64,000 nt of DNA. It comes from Candidatus Poribacteria bacterium. GTDB lineage: Bacteria > Poribacteria > WGA-4E > WGA-3G. The position numbers were made by a program, and so were the translations under genes. The stretch covers positions 2,368,001 to 2,432,000 of the forward strand of contig OZ243938.1 of the NCBI GenBank assembly GCA_965214095.1, written 5' to 3'. Under the pieces are notes generated by a model. The model did no database searches and was not told the DNA's origin. It saw nothing but the letters and a program-made list of their open reading frames with translations. Shown one piece after another: positions 2,050 to 53,738 of this stretch. Positions within the stretch are counted from its first letter, which is position 1, and each line of letters starts with the position of its first letter.

Positions 2050-2715
2050 ATGCTAAAATTTCAGATATCCCTTATTCTTATTTTAATAGGTTGTATGGCT
2101 ATTATGTCTTGCAGCCGGACACATGATGCATTAGAGGATGTCATGATGGATCCTGAACCAGAAATGATGGATGATTACAAGTCATGGGAACATGCTATGC
2201 TTGCTGGAGCAGTAATGGACTTTGGAGGCGAGGCTCACGATTTAGGGGCACGTATAATCTATTTTAACGAAGCCGCTGCTACAGCTAACAAGGATGGCAC
2301 AGATTACCCTGTTGGTTCTGTAATTGTCAAAGAATCCATGGATACAGCAAACACATTTATCTCACAGATTTCAACGATGACGAAAATCGATTCTGCAGAT
2401 AATGATGGTTGGGAATACGGTGTAAGTGGTCCTCCTGCTGCAACAGCAGAAGAGTTGATGATGACAAATCAACTTACTGCAGAAATGGGTATGCAAGCCT
2501 GCCATTTTTGCCATGCAAAAGCCCCCGATGGTAAATCTGTCTTCGTTTCGCTTAAAATGGATGAAGAAATGATGGAAGGCATGGGTGAAGGCACCGAAGG
2601 TATGGGTGAAGGCACCGAAGACAACGGCGATGGCAACGGTGGTACTAACGGCGATGGCAACGGTGGTACTAACGGCAATGGCAACGGTGGTAACGAAGAC
2701 CACGGCAGTGCCTAA
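2050..2715 (+). CDS. Cytochrome P460-like c-type cytochrome lipoprotein with low-complexity tail
   Basis: AGGAG SD, lipobox-like IMSC, YPVGSVIVKE...GWEY...CHFCH (late CxxCH), Met/Gly/Asn repeat tail. Confidence 0.7.
   Translation: MLKFQISLILILIGCMAIMSCSRTHDALEDVMMDPEPEMMDDYKSWEHAMLAGAVMDFGGEAHDLGARIIYFNEAAATANKDGTDYPVGSVIVKESMDTANTFISQISTMTKIDSADNDGWEYGVSGPPAATAEELMMTNQLTAEMGMQACHFCHAKAPDGKSVFVSLKMDEEMMEGMGEGTEGMGEGTEDNGDGNGGTNGDGNGGTNGNGNGGNEDHGSA
2575..2692 (+). repeat. Coding tandem repeats: 21 bp x2 (EGMGEGT) and 24 bp x3 (NGDGNGGT)
   Basis: Directly visible at 2575-2616 and 2623-2692. Confidence 0.9.
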
Positions 2716-2739
2716 AACATCTCACATTACATACAACAG

Positions 2740-2789
2740 AATCGGATTGGTAGAACATTGAGTTGTTCCCAATCCGATTTTTATTTTTT
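2740..2789 (+). terminator. Probable intrinsic terminator
   Basis: AATCGGATTGG...CCAATCCGATT stem followed by a T-rich tract, just after the cytochrome stop codon. Confidence 0.65.
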
Positions 2790-2876
2790 CAAATCTCAGT
2801 AGGTGTGGTTTCCTAACCAATTCAGAATACCAGAGGTGTATTCTGACATAAACATCAATTAAGTGAATTTCTTTTA

Positions 2877-2950
2877 TCTGAATCTCGGATTTGCACGGAT
2901 GACTCTTATCCTGCAAATCTACTAATCCTGAAAATCCTGGTTCAGACAAT
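2877..2950. repeat. AATCCTG/GGTTCAGACAA repeat (family C)
   Basis: ATCCTGCAAATCTACTAATCCTGAAAATCCTGGTTCAGACAAT at 2908-2950; related copies at 27564-27769, 31704-31763 and 44726-44759. Confidence 0.8.
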
Positions 2951-2983
2951 AAGGAATACAAACCAATAACAAGAAACGCGTTA

Positions 2984-3076
2984 GTAGTCGCGCAATTCAT
3001 TGCGCCTCTTACATTCGACAATTGAAGATAAAACTACAAATGCACAATGATACCTTATCTATTAGAAATGGTATAA
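2984..3076. repeat. Partial MITE: family B REP plus right terminal inverted repeat (TIR) TAGAAATGGTA
   Basis: Nearly colinear with 6576-6669; left TIR not found. Confidence 0.7.
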
Positions 3077-3092
3077 CTGCAAACATTCGGCG

Positions 3093-3121
3093 TTGCTTTG
3101 GAAGGTGTTATATGGTAAAAT
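3093..3121 (+). promoter_or_regulatory. Putative sigma70 promoter of ackA
   Basis: TTGCTT-17 bp-TAAAAT with TG extended -10. Confidence 0.45.
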
Positions 3122-3221
3122 ATTCCGTATATTGATTATCTCACTAATCCAATAAGCGGTGAATCTTCAGATTCGCTACAAATGATACACGTTACACATA
3201 AGAATTGAAACACAAACCACC

Positions 3222-4418
3222 ATGCATATACTCTGCGCCAACGTAGGAAGCACCTCGTTCAAATACCAAATCCTTGACATGAAAACGACGACCTCCCTCG
3301 TCAAAGGTGGGATAGACCGTATCGGCAATTCACCGTCTGCCTATACACACGCCGTACCGGGCAAACCAGCACGTGAGGGTGAAATTGATGCACCGTCTCA
3401 CATTGACGCAATTGCACATGCCATGCAACTCATCACTGATCCTGAAGTCGGTTGTCTAACTGACCTAAACGAATTGGATGGAGTTGGTTTCAAAACTATT
3501 CTCGCCAAAGGATATTGGCGTTCTGCACGGATTACTGAGGATGTTATCGACGCATTAGAAGCATCCACTCCGCTTGCCCCGATGCACAATCCATTCTATA
3601 TAGCCTCCATCCGTGCATTTCAAGAACTCCTCCCGACTACACCACTTGTTGCTGTTTTTGAGACGTGGTTTCATCAAACCATACCAGATTATGCCTACGA
3701 ATTCGGTGTGCCTCGTTTCTGGGTAGAAAAGCACGGTATTCGCAAATACGGGTTCCACGGCGCATCTCATCGTTACATCTCCGAACGCGTGCCGCAAATT
3801 CTCGGTCGTGAAAATGATGATGGACTTCGGATTATCTCCTGTCACCTCGGTGGGAGTTCCTCTATCTGCGCTATCAAAGACGGCAAATCTATTGACACGT
3901 CAATGGGAGCATCAACACAATACGGTATGATACAATCCACCCGTTGCGGTGATTTAGATGCTTTCGCTGTCCTATATCTGATGGACAAAGAAGGATTTTC
4001 TACCGATGAAATACGTCGACAACTGATAGATGAATCGGGGGTGAAAGGCATCTCTGGTACAAGTGGTGATATGCGCGATGTGGAATCGGAAATTCAAGAA
4101 GGTAACGACAGCGCACGTTTAGCATTAGATACTTATGTATATGGCGTAAAAAAGTATATCGGTGCGTATATCGCTGCACTCGGTGGGGTTGATGTAATTG
4201 CATTTGCTGGAGGTATCGGAGAAAAAAGTGCAATAACACGGTCAAAAATCTGTGATGGACTTGACTGGTGCGGTATCCATTTAGACTCTGAAAAGAATGA
4301 CAAATGCTCTGGAGAAGGTGACCTTTCAGCAGAAAACAGTCGGACTAAAATACTTGTTGTATCTACAAATGAGGAACTTATCGTATCGCGTGAAACAGCA
4401 CGTGTGTTGTCTGAGTAA
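3222..4418 (+). CDS. ackA: Acetate/propionate kinase
   Basis: NVGSTSFKY, YGFHGASH, CHLGG, STRCGD, FAGGIGE and TNEE motifs. Confidence 0.92.
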   Translation: MHILCANVGSTSFKYQILDMKTTTSLVKGGIDRIGNSPSAYTHAVPGKPAREGEIDAPSHIDAIAHAMQLITDPEVGCLTDLNELDGVGFKTILAKGYWRSARITEDVIDALEASTPLAPMHNPFYIASIRAFQELLPTTPLVAVFETWFHQTIPDYAYEFGVPRFWVEKHGIRKYGFHGASHRYISERVPQILGRENDDGLRIISCHLGGSSSICAIKDGKSIDTSMGASTQYGMIQSTRCGDLDAFAVLYLMDKEGFSTDEIRRQLIDESGVKGISGTSGDMRDVESEIQEGNDSARLALDTYVYGVKKYIGAYIAALGGVDVIAFAGGIGEKSAITRSKICDGLDWCGIHLDSEKNDKCSGEGDLSAENSRTKILVVSTNEELIVSRETARVLSE

Positions 4419-17597: not shown

Positions 17598-18013
17598 TAT
17601 TTACCTCGCTGGTTCTCTACATACTTGCGAAGCACTTCTAAAGTGATACCCCCTGTGGAGGCGATAAATTTAGAACGCGTCCAAAGCGAGGGAATACGAG
17701 ATTTCAGAGAGGGATACTCATCACGCAACACACGAGAAGTCCAACCTTTGATCCTGCCAACGACAGATGCAGGAGCGAGTTGGGGACTGCTACTCATCAG
17801 AATATGAACATAGTCATCCATCACTTCACAGGCGTGCACTTCATACCCATAAACCTCTTGTTGTTCATAGATCAGTGTTTTGAGCCGTTCAGCAATAGGA
17901 GAGACAAGCACAGGACGACGATATTTTGTGCACCAAATCACATGGTAATCACAACTATAGACTAAAGAATGAGTTGATTTATAGGTAGAGGGTTTTTCTT
18001 TAATTTCTAACAT
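17597..18013 (-). CDS. tnpA: IS200-type Y1 transposase, HUH motif altered to DYVH
   Basis: YHVIWCTKYR, KGWTSR, LWTRS and KYVENQ motifs. Confidence 0.92.
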   Translation of the reverse strand: MLEIKEKPSTYKSTHSLVYSCDYHVIWCTKYRRPVLVSPIAERLKTLIYEQQEVYGYEVHACEVMDDYVHILMSSSPQLAPASVVGRIKGWTSRVLRDEYPSLKSRIPSLWTRSKFIASTGGITLEVLRKYVENQRGK

Positions 18014-50069: not shown

Positions 50070-51053
50070 CTAATCAAAACCTAAACGTTTTACTTCGGTT
50101 TGAAGGGAGATTCCTGTTTTTTCTTTCACATGTTTTTGGATATACGCGACTAAGTCTAAGACATCATTCGCAGTGGCGTTGTCAAGGTTGAGGATAAAGT
50201 TGCCGTGTATAGTTGACACCTCTGCTCCACCGATACGGTGTCCTTTCAAACCACTGATGTCTATGAGTCGTCCAGCAGAATCGTCAGGGGGATTTTTGAA
50301 CATACATCCCGCATTCTCTTCAACGAAGGGTTGCGTTTCTATTTTCTGTTTGAATAGGGTGTTCATCTTTGATGTGATTTCGTCAACATCACCGGGTTGT
50401 AGCTTGAGGGTCGCTGCGATAACACAGAAATATGCTTCTAAGCCGCTGTGTCTATATTCAAATTGTGCTTCGTCATGGGTTAGCGTTATCAGTTCACCTG
50501 TATCCTGCATGACTGTAACATCTGTGACGACATCCCCGAAACTGCTGCCCCATGCACCTGCGTTCATTATGAGCGCACCACCGACTGAACCCGGAATACC
50601 GAGCGCGAATTCAACACCACTTAATCCGTTCTTTGACATCAATTTGGAGAGACCTGGTAGTGATTGTCCCGCACCTACGGTGACTATTTCGCCATCTACA
50701 TCCAAATTTGCTAATTCACCGATTAACCGAATACATAATCCTTTGAAACCTTTATCGCTTACCAGCAAATTTGATCCTTTTCCGATAACTGCAACAGGCA
50801 CTTTCCATTCTCGGTGAAATTGCGCTAATGTAACTAAGTCGTCTATTGTGTTTACTTCTATGTATGCTGTTGCTTCTCCACCGATGCCGAAGTGTGTATG
50901 TTTTGCGAGCGGTTCTTGAAAACGGAGTCGTGTGTGTTGTTGGAAATCTATTCTTGATAATTCATCTTTCCAGGTGATACTCACTACGGAGACTAAAGCC
51001 GTGTGCTTCTTTGGCACACAACTCCCTATGTGATTCTTGTTTCCGTCTCTCAT
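50070..51053 (-). CDS. murB: UDP-N-acetylenolpyruvoylglucosamine reductase; first 27 codons derive from the IS right end
   Basis: HTHFGIGG, GKGSNLL, GIPGSVGGALIMNAGA, YRHS, AGCMFKNP, HGNFI and LQTEV motifs. Confidence 0.93.
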   Translation of the reverse strand: MRDGNKNHIGSCVPKKHTALVSVVSITWKDELSRIDFQQHTRLRFQEPLAKHTHFGIGGEATAYIEVNTIDDLVTLAQFHREWKVPVAVIGKGSNLLVSDKGFKGLCIRLIGELANLDVDGEIVTVGAGQSLPGLSKLMSKNGLSGVEFALGIPGSVGGALIMNAGAWGSSFGDVVTDVTVMQDTGELITLTHDEAQFEYRHSGLEAYFCVIAATLKLQPGDVDEITSKMNTLFKQKIETQPFVEENAGCMFKNPPDDSAGRLIDISGLKGHRIGGAEVSTIHGNFILNLDNATANDVLDLVAYIQKHVKEKTGISLQTEVKRLGFD

Positions 51054-51991
51054 GCCTTTTCCTGAACGGTGTTAGGTCTTATTTGGACTCCACAAGCGTA
51101 ACTTCCCGTCTATCCGACGGCAGTTGGTTTTAGATTTATAGCTGCGTTAACATCTCTATCTATAGTTATATCACATTTAGGACAGTGATATGTTCTATCT
51201 GATAATGCTTTTGCCAACTTTTTATTCTTTAGCATATTAGCAACTTTTAAGGTTTCTATGCCGATAGCACTTGCATTATGGACAATAATAAGTAGTAGCT
51301 TTGTGGTGTGCGTCATTTCTAATACAGGCAATCTTGTAATGTAAACGTGCTACGCTTTCTTTGGCTTTATACCAGTTTTTTGATTTATACACTTTTCTAC
51401 TCAAGGCACGATTTTGACGCTTCAACTTTTTTTCATCACGTCTCAATGGTCTTGGGTTTTCATATTTAGTGCCATCACTCAAAGTAGCAAGTGTGTTGAT
51501 ACCTACATCTATACCTATAACAGGGTGCGTTGAGTTGTCAACTGCTTCGGTGTCCTCTGTTTCTACAGTAATAGATATAAACCAACGATGTGCCGTTTTT
51601 GAAATTGTCACACTAATAATCTTTCCAATAAAACGCAACTCTTGAAACATCTGGACCCATCCAATCTTGGGTAATCGGACACGTTTGCCAAGATTGAAAA
51701 TTGTCTTTACATAAACCAACCTTAAAATCAGATAAGGCATGATTATATGCCAATCGGGCATAACCGCTTTGCTGTGAAAACCAATGCCTTTGTCTAAATG
51801 TAGGATCTAATGTTATTTTATGTGTCTTATACATGGCATCACTGCTTCTGTGCAGATTCTGTTTCCCCCTACTAAAGGTGTGGTAGATGTTAGTAGCATC
51901 TACCACTGAAACAGTCTAAATAGTATACCACAAAAAAATAGATTAATATACAAACTTTCTTGACCCAAGTCTAAAGACTTGGTATTGTTAA
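50974..51991 (-). mobile_element. Non-autonomous IS200/IS605 (tnpB-only) element inserted in the murB 5' end
   Basis: Left hairpin CCCAAGTCTAAAGACTTGG at 51964-51982 identical to the 18112 copy; right hairpin CACGGCTTTAGTCTCCGTAG followed by ...TCAC. Confidence 0.8.
51110..51834 (-). pseudogene. tnpB: tnpB pseudogene with two internal deletions and frameshifts
   Basis: MYKTHKITLDPT..., VIGIDVG, IGIETL and CPKC..IDRDVNAA distributed over three ORFs. Confidence 0.9.
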
Positions 51992-52014
51992 TGAAGTCCC
52001 TTCATATATTTCTC

Positions 52015-52830
52015 CTAATCGTGTGTCTGAAAACGATATACTTCTTGTGCGTTTTCGGATAGGTTTGTCCATATCTCTTCTGGAACACGTGCGTTGAATA
52101 TATTTGGTGCATCAGGTGCATGGTGAAATCTGCGAAAATAGACCAACGCGAACATGTGTCGGCGTGTTTGCGTGCGGTTCGGCATTGCACGATGCCAACA
52201 CCGCATATCCCGAACTACTATAGAACCTGCGGGCATGACTAACTGAAATGAAGGGAGTTGGGCAGCCCGTTCCTCTTCACATACGTTGTAGGGTGTATTT
52301 CGAACTGCTTCGTCATCAATGATGAGATGTGAGCCGGGCCACACTTCCGTTGCACCGTTTTCCACCGTAAAGTCAACCAGTGGAATGTTAACAACTATTG
52401 ATGTGACTGGCAGTGCAAACGGTAACTCAGGAAAGAGTTGACCGGAATCTCTATGGATCCATTGTATATCAGAACCCGGTGCAGTTGAGTTGCATCCGTA
52501 GGGCAAATATGCAAATATCTTTTCTCCCATGACCGCCTTCATTATCGGCAAGGCAAAAGAGTTGTCAATTATCCGGGCATCCATGAATGGCATCTTTAGC
52601 ATCGGGTGTATGCCGTTGTGGACTTCATCTCCGTTATCAAGAACTGACTGCATTGCTGTGTTGATCGTTTCTATCCAATCGCGAGGAAGAACACTTTCAA
52701 TGACAACTAATCCTGTTTCGCGTAGAAGGCGTGCGGCAGCATCTATGCTCTCTGATGTAGGTTTGTTTTCAGCACGTTCCTGTGCTGATATTTCTAACTT
52801 AGGTATGTTGATTGTTGTTCCTGAACTCAC
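52015..52830 (-). CDS. PhyH family dioxygenase
   Basis: IHRD, NGATEVWPGSH and WHRAMPN...R motifs. Confidence 0.9.
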   Translation of the reverse strand: MSSGTTINIPKLEISAQERAENKPTSESIDAAARLLRETGLVVIESVLPRDWIETINTAMQSVLDNGDEVHNGIHPMLKMPFMDARIIDNSFALPIMKAVMGEKIFAYLPYGCNSTAPGSDIQWIHRDSGQLFPELPFALPVTSIVVNIPLVDFTVENGATEVWPGSHLIIDDEAVRNTPYNVCEEERAAQLPSFQLVMPAGSIVVRDMRCWHRAMPNRTQTRRHMFALVYFRRFHHAPDAPNIFNARVPEEIWTNLSENAQEVYRFQTHD

Positions 52831-52838
52831 GGTCAGAC

Positions 52839-53591
52839 CTATCCTTCTGTTTGATTTGGTGGTAGTTTCAATGCTTCTCTCACTTCTTGACGAACTATGT
52901 TACAAGTTTTTACTACATGTTCAGCATTTCCCGAAGTAGCAGATTTACCGGGATAACGAAATTCCACAGCATAAGGAGCAATAGTAGAAAAATCTGTTTG
53001 CCAAATATTCCAATCTGGAATAGTAGGAAGAATCAGACCTAATAATGCTAACAAATCATGTGATCTTGGTAACGGAATGTTTGTCTCTTGTAACCATGCC
53101 TTTAAATACTTCTCTATACACTGTTGTGCGTGGAAACAGATATGATCATAATCTGGTGATGATGCCTGTTGATGCAATCCTATGGCATTATAATCTCTTT
53201 CGGCTTTCTGCACCCACTCAAGTGTTAATGGATTCATACCCTCCTCTTTCTTTTTGAAAGGTTTGCTGACAAAGCTAATATTTCCATAAAGCACTTTACC
53301 TCTTTCTGTGATCTCACGAAGAAACCAATCGTTGTGTGAGATTCTATAAGCGATCTCATCTGGTGTCCGCACGAGCAAATCCATGCTAAAGCGACGTGGG
53401 ATACGTTGCCATATCTCTGCAGCTTGCTTGGTTGTCTCCGATTCTGAGATATCCATCACAACCAACAAATCAACATCTGAGTCTTCTTTTGGCGTGCCGT
53501 AGGCGTGGGAACCAAATAGAATAACTTGAAGCGGTGAGAATTCACGAACAATATCGTCACAGGTTGCTTGAATGTCATCTTGCGTAATCAT
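52839..53591 (-). CDS. Fused minimal nucleotidyltransferase (MNT)-HEPN protein
   Basis: LFGSHAYG...SDVDLLV; FHAQQCIEKYLKA, RSHDL and FRYP; SD and ATG at 53591, second SD and ATG at 53237. Confidence 0.85.
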   Translation of the reverse strand: MITQDDIQATCDDIVREFSPLQVILFGSHAYGTPKEDSDVDLLVVMDISESETTKQAAEIWQRIPRRFSMDLLVRTPDEIAYRISHNDWFLREITERGKVLYGNISFVSKPFKKKEEGMNPLTLEWVQKAERDYNAIGLHQQASSPDYDHICFHAQQCIEKYLKAWLQETNIPLPRSHDLLALLGLILPTIPDWNIWQTDFSTIAPYAVEFRYPGKSATSGNAEHVVKTCNIVRQEVREALKLPPNQTEG

Positions 53592-53611
53592 GACCTTTCT
53601 CCTTATTGGCA

Positions 53612-53641
53612 AGTATAGCATGGAAGCATAACAGATGTCAA
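53612..53641 (-). promoter_or_regulatory. Promoter of MNT-HEPN
   Basis: Minus strand TTGACA-18 bp-TATACT with TG extension. Confidence 0.65.
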
Positions 53642-53738
53642 TATGGGTGTGAAATGGTTTGACATTCATATTGTATAGTTTACAAATCTATATGCTGCTA
53701 TAATACAATCAGTTCAATCCGATGGAGGAATAATTCCC

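Follow-up and report, generated by a model that had tools for sequence, protein, structure and literature searches.

The window analysed here, a 64,000-nt stretch of contig OZ243938.1 from a Candidatus Poribacteria bacterium, carries on its minus strand the cell-wall gene murB, the 5' end of which is occupied by a decayed, non-autonomous element of the stand-alone tnpB type within the IS200/IS605 family. Coordinates are positions in the window unless a contig is named; the genome to which the window belongs is designated G000, and its closest relative G021. Comparison with related genomes, as described below, suggests that the element has deprived murB of its own start codon and ribosome-binding site, and that the gene is now translated from a start codon within the element's right end.

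Organization of the murB Locus

Read along the minus strand, the locus consists of a gene for a PhyH-family dioxygenase (52830-52015; Pfam PhyH), a GGAG motif, the short sequence ATG AAG GGA CTT CAT TAA, about 1 kb of DNA with pieces of tnpB, and murB, which agrees with how an earlier interpretation made from the letters of this DNA (the sequence-only reading) had described the region. The stop codon of the PhyH gene, TAG, occupies 52017-52015 and is followed by GGAG (52015-52012) and by an ATG at 52005. The element itself spans 50974-52000 (1027 nt), as delimited by empty sites in relatives and by a twin copy elsewhere in G000. The last letters of its right end, up to 50974, are GTGAGTATCAC, and murB resumes at 50973 as C TGG AAA GAT GAA. 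The native portion of murB covers 50070-50973, starting with the third base of codon 2 and including the stop codon; the gene is 96% identical to its orthologue in G021. Upstream of this portion, the stretch at 50974-51053, a predicted guide-RNA (omega-RNA) scaffold in which the candidate start codons lie, reads in frame into murB. The result is a single open frame of 327 aa, from an ATG at 51053 to the murB stop codon (50070); the sequence-only reading had likewise recognized murB as one open frame, either from this ATG or from a GTG near 50984.

The translated frame contains the Pfam domains FAD_binding_4 (PF01565, E 1.6e-23; residues 62-191) and MurB_C (PF02873, E 2.3e-33; residues 225-323). 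This succession of domains, the single copy, and the orthology across relatives identify the predicted product as MurB. The G000 assembly (94% complete, four contigs) contains one murB protein match and one MurB_C match, hence a second murB, for which the sequence-only reading had proposed to look, was not found. Among 41 genomes, 38 have a murB match, and in all 37 relatives with such a match the gene begins with ATG-(A/G)A(C/T)-TGG-AAA, i.e., M-[N/D/E/G]-W-K; the start in G021 reads ATGAAC TGG AAA GAC, and the native N-terminus is M-N-W-K-D.

Boundaries and Target Site of the Element

In G021, the murB site and a second site, located in a gene referred to here as gene X, are both empty. The sequence breaks at 52001|52000 and 50974|50973 in G021 and equally in contigs of sequencing run X16, which stems from a relative of about 95% identity: one X16 contig (2383 nt) follows murB to exactly 50973 and then continues with a stretch resembling a ribosome-binding site and with ATGAA, and a second one follows the PhyH gene down to 52001 and then enters the body of gene X. 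These empty sites confirm the presence of a decayed tnpB element within the 5' end of murB, as had been proposed from the letters alone, and their breaks define the element as 50974-52000 and not as 50974-51991. The right boundary given by the sequence-only reading is therefore correct, and its left boundary was placed 9 nt too far in. The element was inserted behind ATGAA, separating the fifth from the sixth base of the open reading frame (ATG AA|C in murB), and comparison of the two occupied with the two empty sites reveals no duplicated base, the junctions being ATGAA|C TGG in murB and ATGAA|ACG in gene X.

The left end leads to the same boundary. The first 9 nt of the element are GGGACTTCA (52000-51992), and the host DNA at this junction comprises only ATGAA (52005-52001). 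The 1018 nt between 50974 and 51991 have a match of 98% over their whole length at G000:C1:2730518-2731528, within the twin, and both of these copies are preceded by the identical 14 nt, ATGAAGGGACTTCA, which consequently cannot all be host DNA. The sequence GGGACTTCA also heads the twin's left end; related copies begin with GGGAATT, and two intact relatives within G000 begin as ATGAA|GGGAATTG. At the opposite terminus, six of the seven G000 copies that reach it finish with GTGAGTATCAC and the seventh with GTGAGTATCAA, beyond which the flanks differ.

Proposed Translation of murB From the Right End

Three canonical start codons within the right end are in frame with murB on the minus strand: an ATG at 51053-51051, with AGGA 6 nt upstream, a GTG at 51017-51015, with GGGAG 4 nt upstream, and a GTG at 50984-50982, without a Shine-Dalgarno-like motif. 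The next in-frame canonical start, a GTG at 50801, is reached only after 58 codons of the native protein, within the FAD-binding domain, so that murB must start in the right end of the element, and on this point the sequence-only reading holds.

A history consistent with these features would begin with a transposase-less, nuclease-dead element of the stand-alone tnpB type, which would have inserted 3' of TGAA within the first two codons of murB. The gene would thereby have lost its own ATG and ribosome-binding site, and the start would instead be supplied by ATG 51053, GTG 51017 or GTG 50984, which would lengthen MurB by 25, 13 or 2 residues, respectively, relative to its native form. Transcripts would come from the left end of the element or from the PhyH operon. 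At the left end, a promoter-like site (TAGACT, 17 nt spacer, TATATT; 51945-51973, minus strand) agrees with the consensus at 9 of 12 positions, and a scan of the minus strand between the PhyH gene and murB found no terminator-like site. The promoter proposed by the sequence-only reading is a weak match to the consensus. The comparisons show the boundaries, the target, the native N-terminus, the exchange of flanks, the single murB copy and the shared decay, and use of a right-end start, the choice among the three and the origin of transcription are inferred. The terminus of the right end, GTG AGT ATC AC, has a further consequence: any gene that is hit after the NTGAA of its start codon is automatically in frame with the terminal GTG and with the right-end frame that is open ahead of it.

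Gene X, the Twin Element and a Probable 310-kb Inversion

In G021, the stop codon of the PhyH gene is followed by a ribosome-binding site, ATGAA and then directly by gene X. When this G021 locus (L049) is aligned to G000 by blastn, its positions 681-2327 match G000 2421647-2420001 (minus), whereas positions 2322-3236 match G000 2731523-2732437 (plus), immediately behind the right end of the twin element. The body of gene X is thus located at G000:C1:2731529, 310 kb away from its PhyH neighbor. From this comparison, the ATG at 52005 and its GGAG (52015-52012) belong to gene X and not to murB, to which the sequence-only reading had assigned them: ATGAA at 52001-52005 comprises the start codon and two further bases of gene X, with TGAA as the target motif preceded by an A, and the PhyH gene, now upstream of murB, is ancestrally the upstream neighbor of gene X.

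The twin (G000:C1:2730509-2731528) has the opposite orientation and is 98% identical to the murB copy over the full length; its left flank carries a stretch resembling a ribosome-binding site followed by ATGAA. The two copies have exchanged their left flanks, which could be explained by two insertions into two start codons, those of murB and gene X, in opposite orientation and about 310 kb apart, and by subsequent homologous recombination between the twins, which would have inverted the approximately 310 kb between them and swapped the left flanks. As a result of the swap, ATGAA and the ribosome-binding site of gene X now precede the murB copy. On the murB side, the DNA upstream of murB in G021 is colinear with G000 from 2715425 down to 2696079, and that in another relative, G005, with G000 from 2737219 down to 2735149. 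Both stretches adjoin the twin and run in the direction that an inversion predicts, and the murB side therefore fits at the kilobase scale. A blastn search with the 1.5-kb flanks against the murB loci of relatives gave no match for the left flank of the twin.

Short-read contigs of runs X3 and X4 carry both present junctions, with the PhyH contig extending 124 nt into the element, but such contigs cannot phase the left and right ends of a repeat. Run X5 (39% of sampled words present, depth 2-5) contains the twin junctions and has no contig over the murB junction, which makes it uninformative, and almost none of the sampled words are present in run X23.

State and Mobility of the Element

The tnpB remnant (51110-51906, minus strand) is split into three frame pieces at 51613-51906, 51276-51761 and 51110-51331. 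The two pieces that were scanned match OrfB_IS605 (PF01385, E 3.7e-25) and the Cas12f1-like TNB domain (PF07282, E 2.7e-8), and the intact 358-aa TnpB of a related G000 copy matches PF01385, PF07282 and PF12323. Relative to this intact protein, two internal deletions (about 206 and 144 nt) and frameshifts are common to both twins. Differences between the twins, in the form of scattered substitutions and two small indels, are found in the left two thirds, and the last 140 nt are identical. The element was accordingly dead before at least one of the two insertions, unless gene conversion has homogenized the copies. In neither case is there support for the order of events in the sequence-only reading, according to which tnpB decayed after insertion into murB. 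The same reading had also predicted murB itself as the guide, which is true for any TnpB element at its own site and hence uninformative.

About 130 nt separate the left end from tnpB, and a subterminal hairpin, CCAAGTC-TTTA-GACTTGG, is located there at 51965-51982 (minus strand). The element has no tnpA; elsewhere, G000 has four intact Y1_Tnp genes and one partial gene. The intact genes encode 141-aa Y1 (IS200-type) transposases and are located at 17609-17962 of the window (minus strand) and at G000:C1:81623, 2170036 and 4230081. In the three cases whose flanks were examined (81623, 2170036 and 17609-17962), these IS200-like tnpA elements carry the hairpin sequence of the murB element's left end together with different outer ends. 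Mobilization in trans is plausible, and these Y1 transposases are candidates for it. A hairpin is also found at the right end, just before the last 12 nt, and changes in its stem are compensated (GGC/GCC, GAC/GTC, GGA/TCC, GCC/GGC), although this small stem is absent from the RNAalifold consensus. The right end as a whole is strongly conserved, with 22 predicted pairs, 4 of which show compensatory change. An Rfam search of 50800-52100 by E-value returned neither an omega-RNA nor an intron family, and a single snoRNA match (E 0.64) is attributed to chance.

Two intact relatives of 1377 nt, each encoding a 358-aa TnpB, are found at G000:C1:1017709-1019085 (L007) and 481585-482961. One of them occupies the start codon of a small gene, presumably of the DUF433 type, and the other is located some 30 nt upstream of a gapA-like gene and has a terminus ending in ATCAA rather than ATCAC.

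A Genus-Wide Census of the Element Family

A 140-nt query from the right end matched 26 of 40 genomes of the genus, and 150 of about 197 matches were listed. The census is based on the best 80 terminus-reaching matches of these ~197 and on the seven G000 copies that reach the terminus, i.e., on 87 copies. All 87 have the right-end terminus in common, with single-base variants in three (L087, L092 and the G000 copy c4), and the terminal GTG is present in 86 copies and replaced by ATG in L092. The left end was found in 46 copies and could be placed in 43 after three misaligned matches had been dropped. It begins with a conserved GGGA(A/C)TT in the placed copies and is flanked by TGAA in 42 of them (30 ATGAA, 6 TTGAA, 3 CTGAA, 3 GTGAA), the remaining flank being ATGGA. 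Full copies measure about 1377 nt and miniature copies 264-433 nt.

In 34 of the 87 copies (39%), the right-end frame remains open for at least 100 codons downstream, as compared to two copies for each of the other two sense frames. Among the 34, two copies occupy a site orthologous to that of another copy. Of the 31 start-codon sites in other genomes, 30 have a homologue in G000, and 23 of these homologues possess an ATG, GTG or TTG at a distance of exactly two codons upstream of the first residue after the element, continued by AA in 19 cases. In five further homologues the start is found within one codon or after an indel, and two homologues, which are paralogue-level matches, are without one. 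The elements are therefore located on start codons, with sense orientation and a single phase. Upstream, no copy has a right-end frame that is open for fewer than 11 codons, and the terminal GTG is the only near-universal start. Seven of the start-codon copies have a stop 11-12 codons upstream and no other canonical start, with the exception of an ACG-to-ATG change in L103.

A 131-nt fossil of the right end is located at G000:C1:868364-868494 (L010, L135), between the stop codon of an upstream gene and a frame of 552 codons at 868363. Neither the left end nor the native start with its ribosome-binding site has survived, and the 552-codon frame is intact. Among the orthologues of this gene in 13 relatives, the start behind the ribosome-binding site reads TTGAAC in nine and ATGAAC in one, and the remaining ones have TTGGAC, ATGCAT or, in one case, no start codon at that position.

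Several individual copies deserve mention. In G003 and G020 (e.g., L059, L070-L073, L080-L083, L091), a burst of near-identical, gene-less 275-nt copies has kept both ends. These miniature copies, which are presumably recent, occur in varied contexts, and one out of ten is on a start codon. In L092 (G016:C35), the element follows GTGAA, as judged from the orthologous empty site in G000, and in L093 (G021:C1:1102832-1105232) it follows TTGAA.

Weighing the Explanations

The observation as such is real and more than a chance arrangement of letters. A dead TnpB element on the start codon of murB, a start supplied by its right end, a twin copy on gene X, and an inversion between the two appear to be the best overall explanation, to which we assign a probability of roughly 0.8. 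Several points weigh against it. The only RNA run that could be placed on the locus comes from a relative with empty sites. The GTG at 50984, besides lacking a Shine-Dalgarno-like motif, stands directly after a hairpin and, as the terminal GTG, is part of a conserved stem in the RNAalifold prediction, which is unexpected for a good start. A promoter scan gave 7 sites as compared to 4.9 expected, which is not significant, and none of them is near the right end on the minus strand. An ATG in the right-end frame is not enriched in start-codon copies (7 of 34, as compared to 6 of 53 others); selection for a change of ACG to ATG was considered and dropped, and the ATG at 51053 cannot be claimed as an adaptation. 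Regarding the inversion, the murB-side contig of X3 and X4 extends 30 nt into the element, one below the 31-nt criterion, and the left flank of the twin resembles the murB leader of G021 over just 23 nt (91%, E 0.14; blastn). The identification of this flank as the old upstream region of murB is based on reciprocal logic and from colinearity at the kilobase scale. Moreover, G021 and G005 differ from G000 by many further rearrangements, and the history may be more complex than a single inversion.

That MKGLH is the original N-terminus of MurB, with ATG 52005 as murB's own start and an element confined to 50974-51991, was the view of the sequence-only reading. Removal of 50974-51991 does yield an open frame, and a good GGAG precedes the ATG. 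However, the shared 14 nt left of the twin and the conserved GGGA(A/C)TT of placed left ends assign the disputed bases to the element, G021 and X16 join this ATGAA to gene X, and all 37 orthologues begin with M-[N/D/E/G]-W-K, an outcome that the sequence-only reading itself had named as its refutation, which leaves its version of the N-terminus with hardly any credibility. Its core, the dependence of murB on the right end, is right; partly supported in this sense, it was mistaken about the left boundary and the N-terminus, about which gene the ATG belongs to, and about when tnpB decayed. Slightly less implausible, yet still very improbable, is an assembly error across the 1-kb repeat as the cause of the flank exchange. 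Short-read contigs collapse the two copies (depth about twice that of the flanks) and cannot phase their ends, but a 5.2 Mb contig in a four-contig assembly suggests reads that span 1-kb repeats, and G021 and G005 both put the murB start beside the 2.72-2.74 Mb region, so that in comparison with these relatives the exchange is real. Even with unswapped flanks, murB would carry the element. It is also conceivable that the occupied murB is not expressed at all, either because a Y1 transposase acting in trans rarely but precisely excises the element and so rebuilds ATGAA|CTGG or because the gene is a fresh pseudogene. Four intact Y1_Tnp genes in G000, the identity of the left-end hairpin to that of their IS200-like elements, and the perfect M-N-W-K frame behind the ribosome-binding site of gene X, which results from removal of 50974-52000, speak for this. 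On the other hand, a rare event in a minority of cells cannot keep an essential single-copy gene, neither an empty-site junction nor a loose end is seen in the X3 and X4 contigs (depth 169-219), with the reservation that contigs drop rare variants, and the murB frame is intact at 96% identity to G021. Furthermore, the fossil at 868364 cannot be restored by excision, yet its 552-codon frame is intact. Silence of the occupied gene is therefore improbable, and translation from the right end of the element remains the preferred explanation.

The clustering of copies on start codons is a separate matter. It might reflect survivorship alone, if insertion at TGAA were random, intragenic copies were purged, and those on start codons persisted, and we regard the odds of this as about even. 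The single start-codon site among ten near-identical 275-nt miniatures agrees with survivorship, and a TGAA at a start codon accounts for about 1/7 of non-disruptive sites, by a rough estimate that was not computed, so that the 39% observed is a moderate excess. Conversely, survivorship still requires working translation from the right end, position -5 shows an excess of A (30 of 43 left flanks), and start-codon sites are more numerous than intergenic neutrality alone would give. A more tentative possibility, somewhat less probable than survivorship, is that the family is adapted to life on start codons. The NTGAA target would then match a start codon followed by AA, the common beginning of a second codon for Lys or Asn, and the invariant GTG AGT ATC AC would restore an in-frame start at every such site, at no greater cost than a change of M-K/N to M-S-I-x, as a counterpart of IStron splicing at the level of translation. 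A gene dependent on the right end would retain it, with the right end fossilizing as a permanent 5' end, including that of the essential murB, and intact TnpB from elsewhere in the genome could bind such leaders and modulate the genes. The census is compatible with a preference for start codons as well as with mere retention: the miniatures favor retention, and the excess of A favors some preference.

Relation to Known Systems

The features found, i.e., TnpB domains, absence of a target duplication, a fixed 4-nt target, and subterminal hairpins, place the element in the TnpB-only (stand-alone tnpB, or IS1341) group of IS200/IS605, a family whose paradigms are IS608 and ISDra2. It shares with this group the OrfB_IS605 and zinc-ribbon/TNB domains, the lack of terminal inverted repeats, insertion 3' of a fixed 4-5-nt motif, hairpins near both ends, a right-end guide-RNA scaffold (predicted in the present case), and gene-less miniatures. 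It differs in the target TGAA, mostly as ATGAA, in the location of 39% of the examined copies in frame on start codons, and in that the murB copy is dead and non-autonomous. Insertion sequences can activate neighboring genes via outward promoters, and Rickettsia palindromic elements insert in frame; in both cases, as here, mobile DNA becomes a host expression signal or coding sequence. However, those elements supply promoters or internal peptides at varied positions, whereas here a terminus of 11 nt with fixed phase serves many genes.

IStrons, which combine a group I intron with an IS605/IS607 element and TnpB, are the closest functional parallel that can be drawn by analogy: splicing lessens the cost of sitting in genes, and these TnpB-bearing elements are likewise found inside genes, even essential ones, in sense orientation and with a device that saves the host gene (10.1101/2023.11.20.567912). 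The murB element is nevertheless not an IStron, for it has no Rfam intron match in 50800-52100 and only about 130 nt ahead of tnpB, its rescue would be translational, via a replacement start codon, and not by splicing, and the first two residues of the protein are replaced rather than restored. The miniature copies of the family (264-433 nt) resemble palindrome-associated transposable elements (PATEs), which are miniature IS200/IS605 derivatives, in that they have family-like ends, are too short for tnpB and would need to be mobilized in trans (10.1101/2023.03.14.532601). Unlike PATEs, the murB copy retains remnants of tnpB. In the literature searched, no link between PATEs and start codons, no IS605/TnpB elements on start codons and no TGAA target motif were found, with supplementary motif tables lying outside the search.

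IS200/IS605 elements and TnpB are intensely studied as ancestors of Cas12 and as genome editors, and ways of limiting the burden on the host have been described mainly for IStrons, which remove themselves by splicing. In the present case, such an element has taken the start codon and ribosome-binding site of an essential cell-wall gene that exists in a single copy, and the gene nevertheless remains intact. The recurrence in 34 of 87 copies, together with a fossil that cannot be excised, points to another way, at the level of translation, in which insertion can be harmless, and to guide-RNA scaffolds becoming leaders and N-termini of host genes. The inversion of 310 kb and its exchange of flanks, as well as the genus-wide start-codon habit of the family, are added findings of the present comparison, and the former would provide a clean example of a rearrangement mediated by an insertion sequence, with breakpoints on two start codons. 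For annotation, the locus is a warning: the ATG with a good ribosome-binding site beside the element is not that of murB, and start calls next to such elements are likely to be wrong in many cases.

Neighboring Features

G021 has about 1.4 kb between murB and a TPR gene (L016, G021:C1:1555589-1559491), as compared to about 45 nt in G000. Just upstream of the PhyH gene, an open reading frame of 276 aa (52839-53669, minus strand) appears, from its translation, to combine a nucleotidyltransferase with a HEPN-like C-terminal half, and would thus represent a toxin-antitoxin-type pair in one frame.

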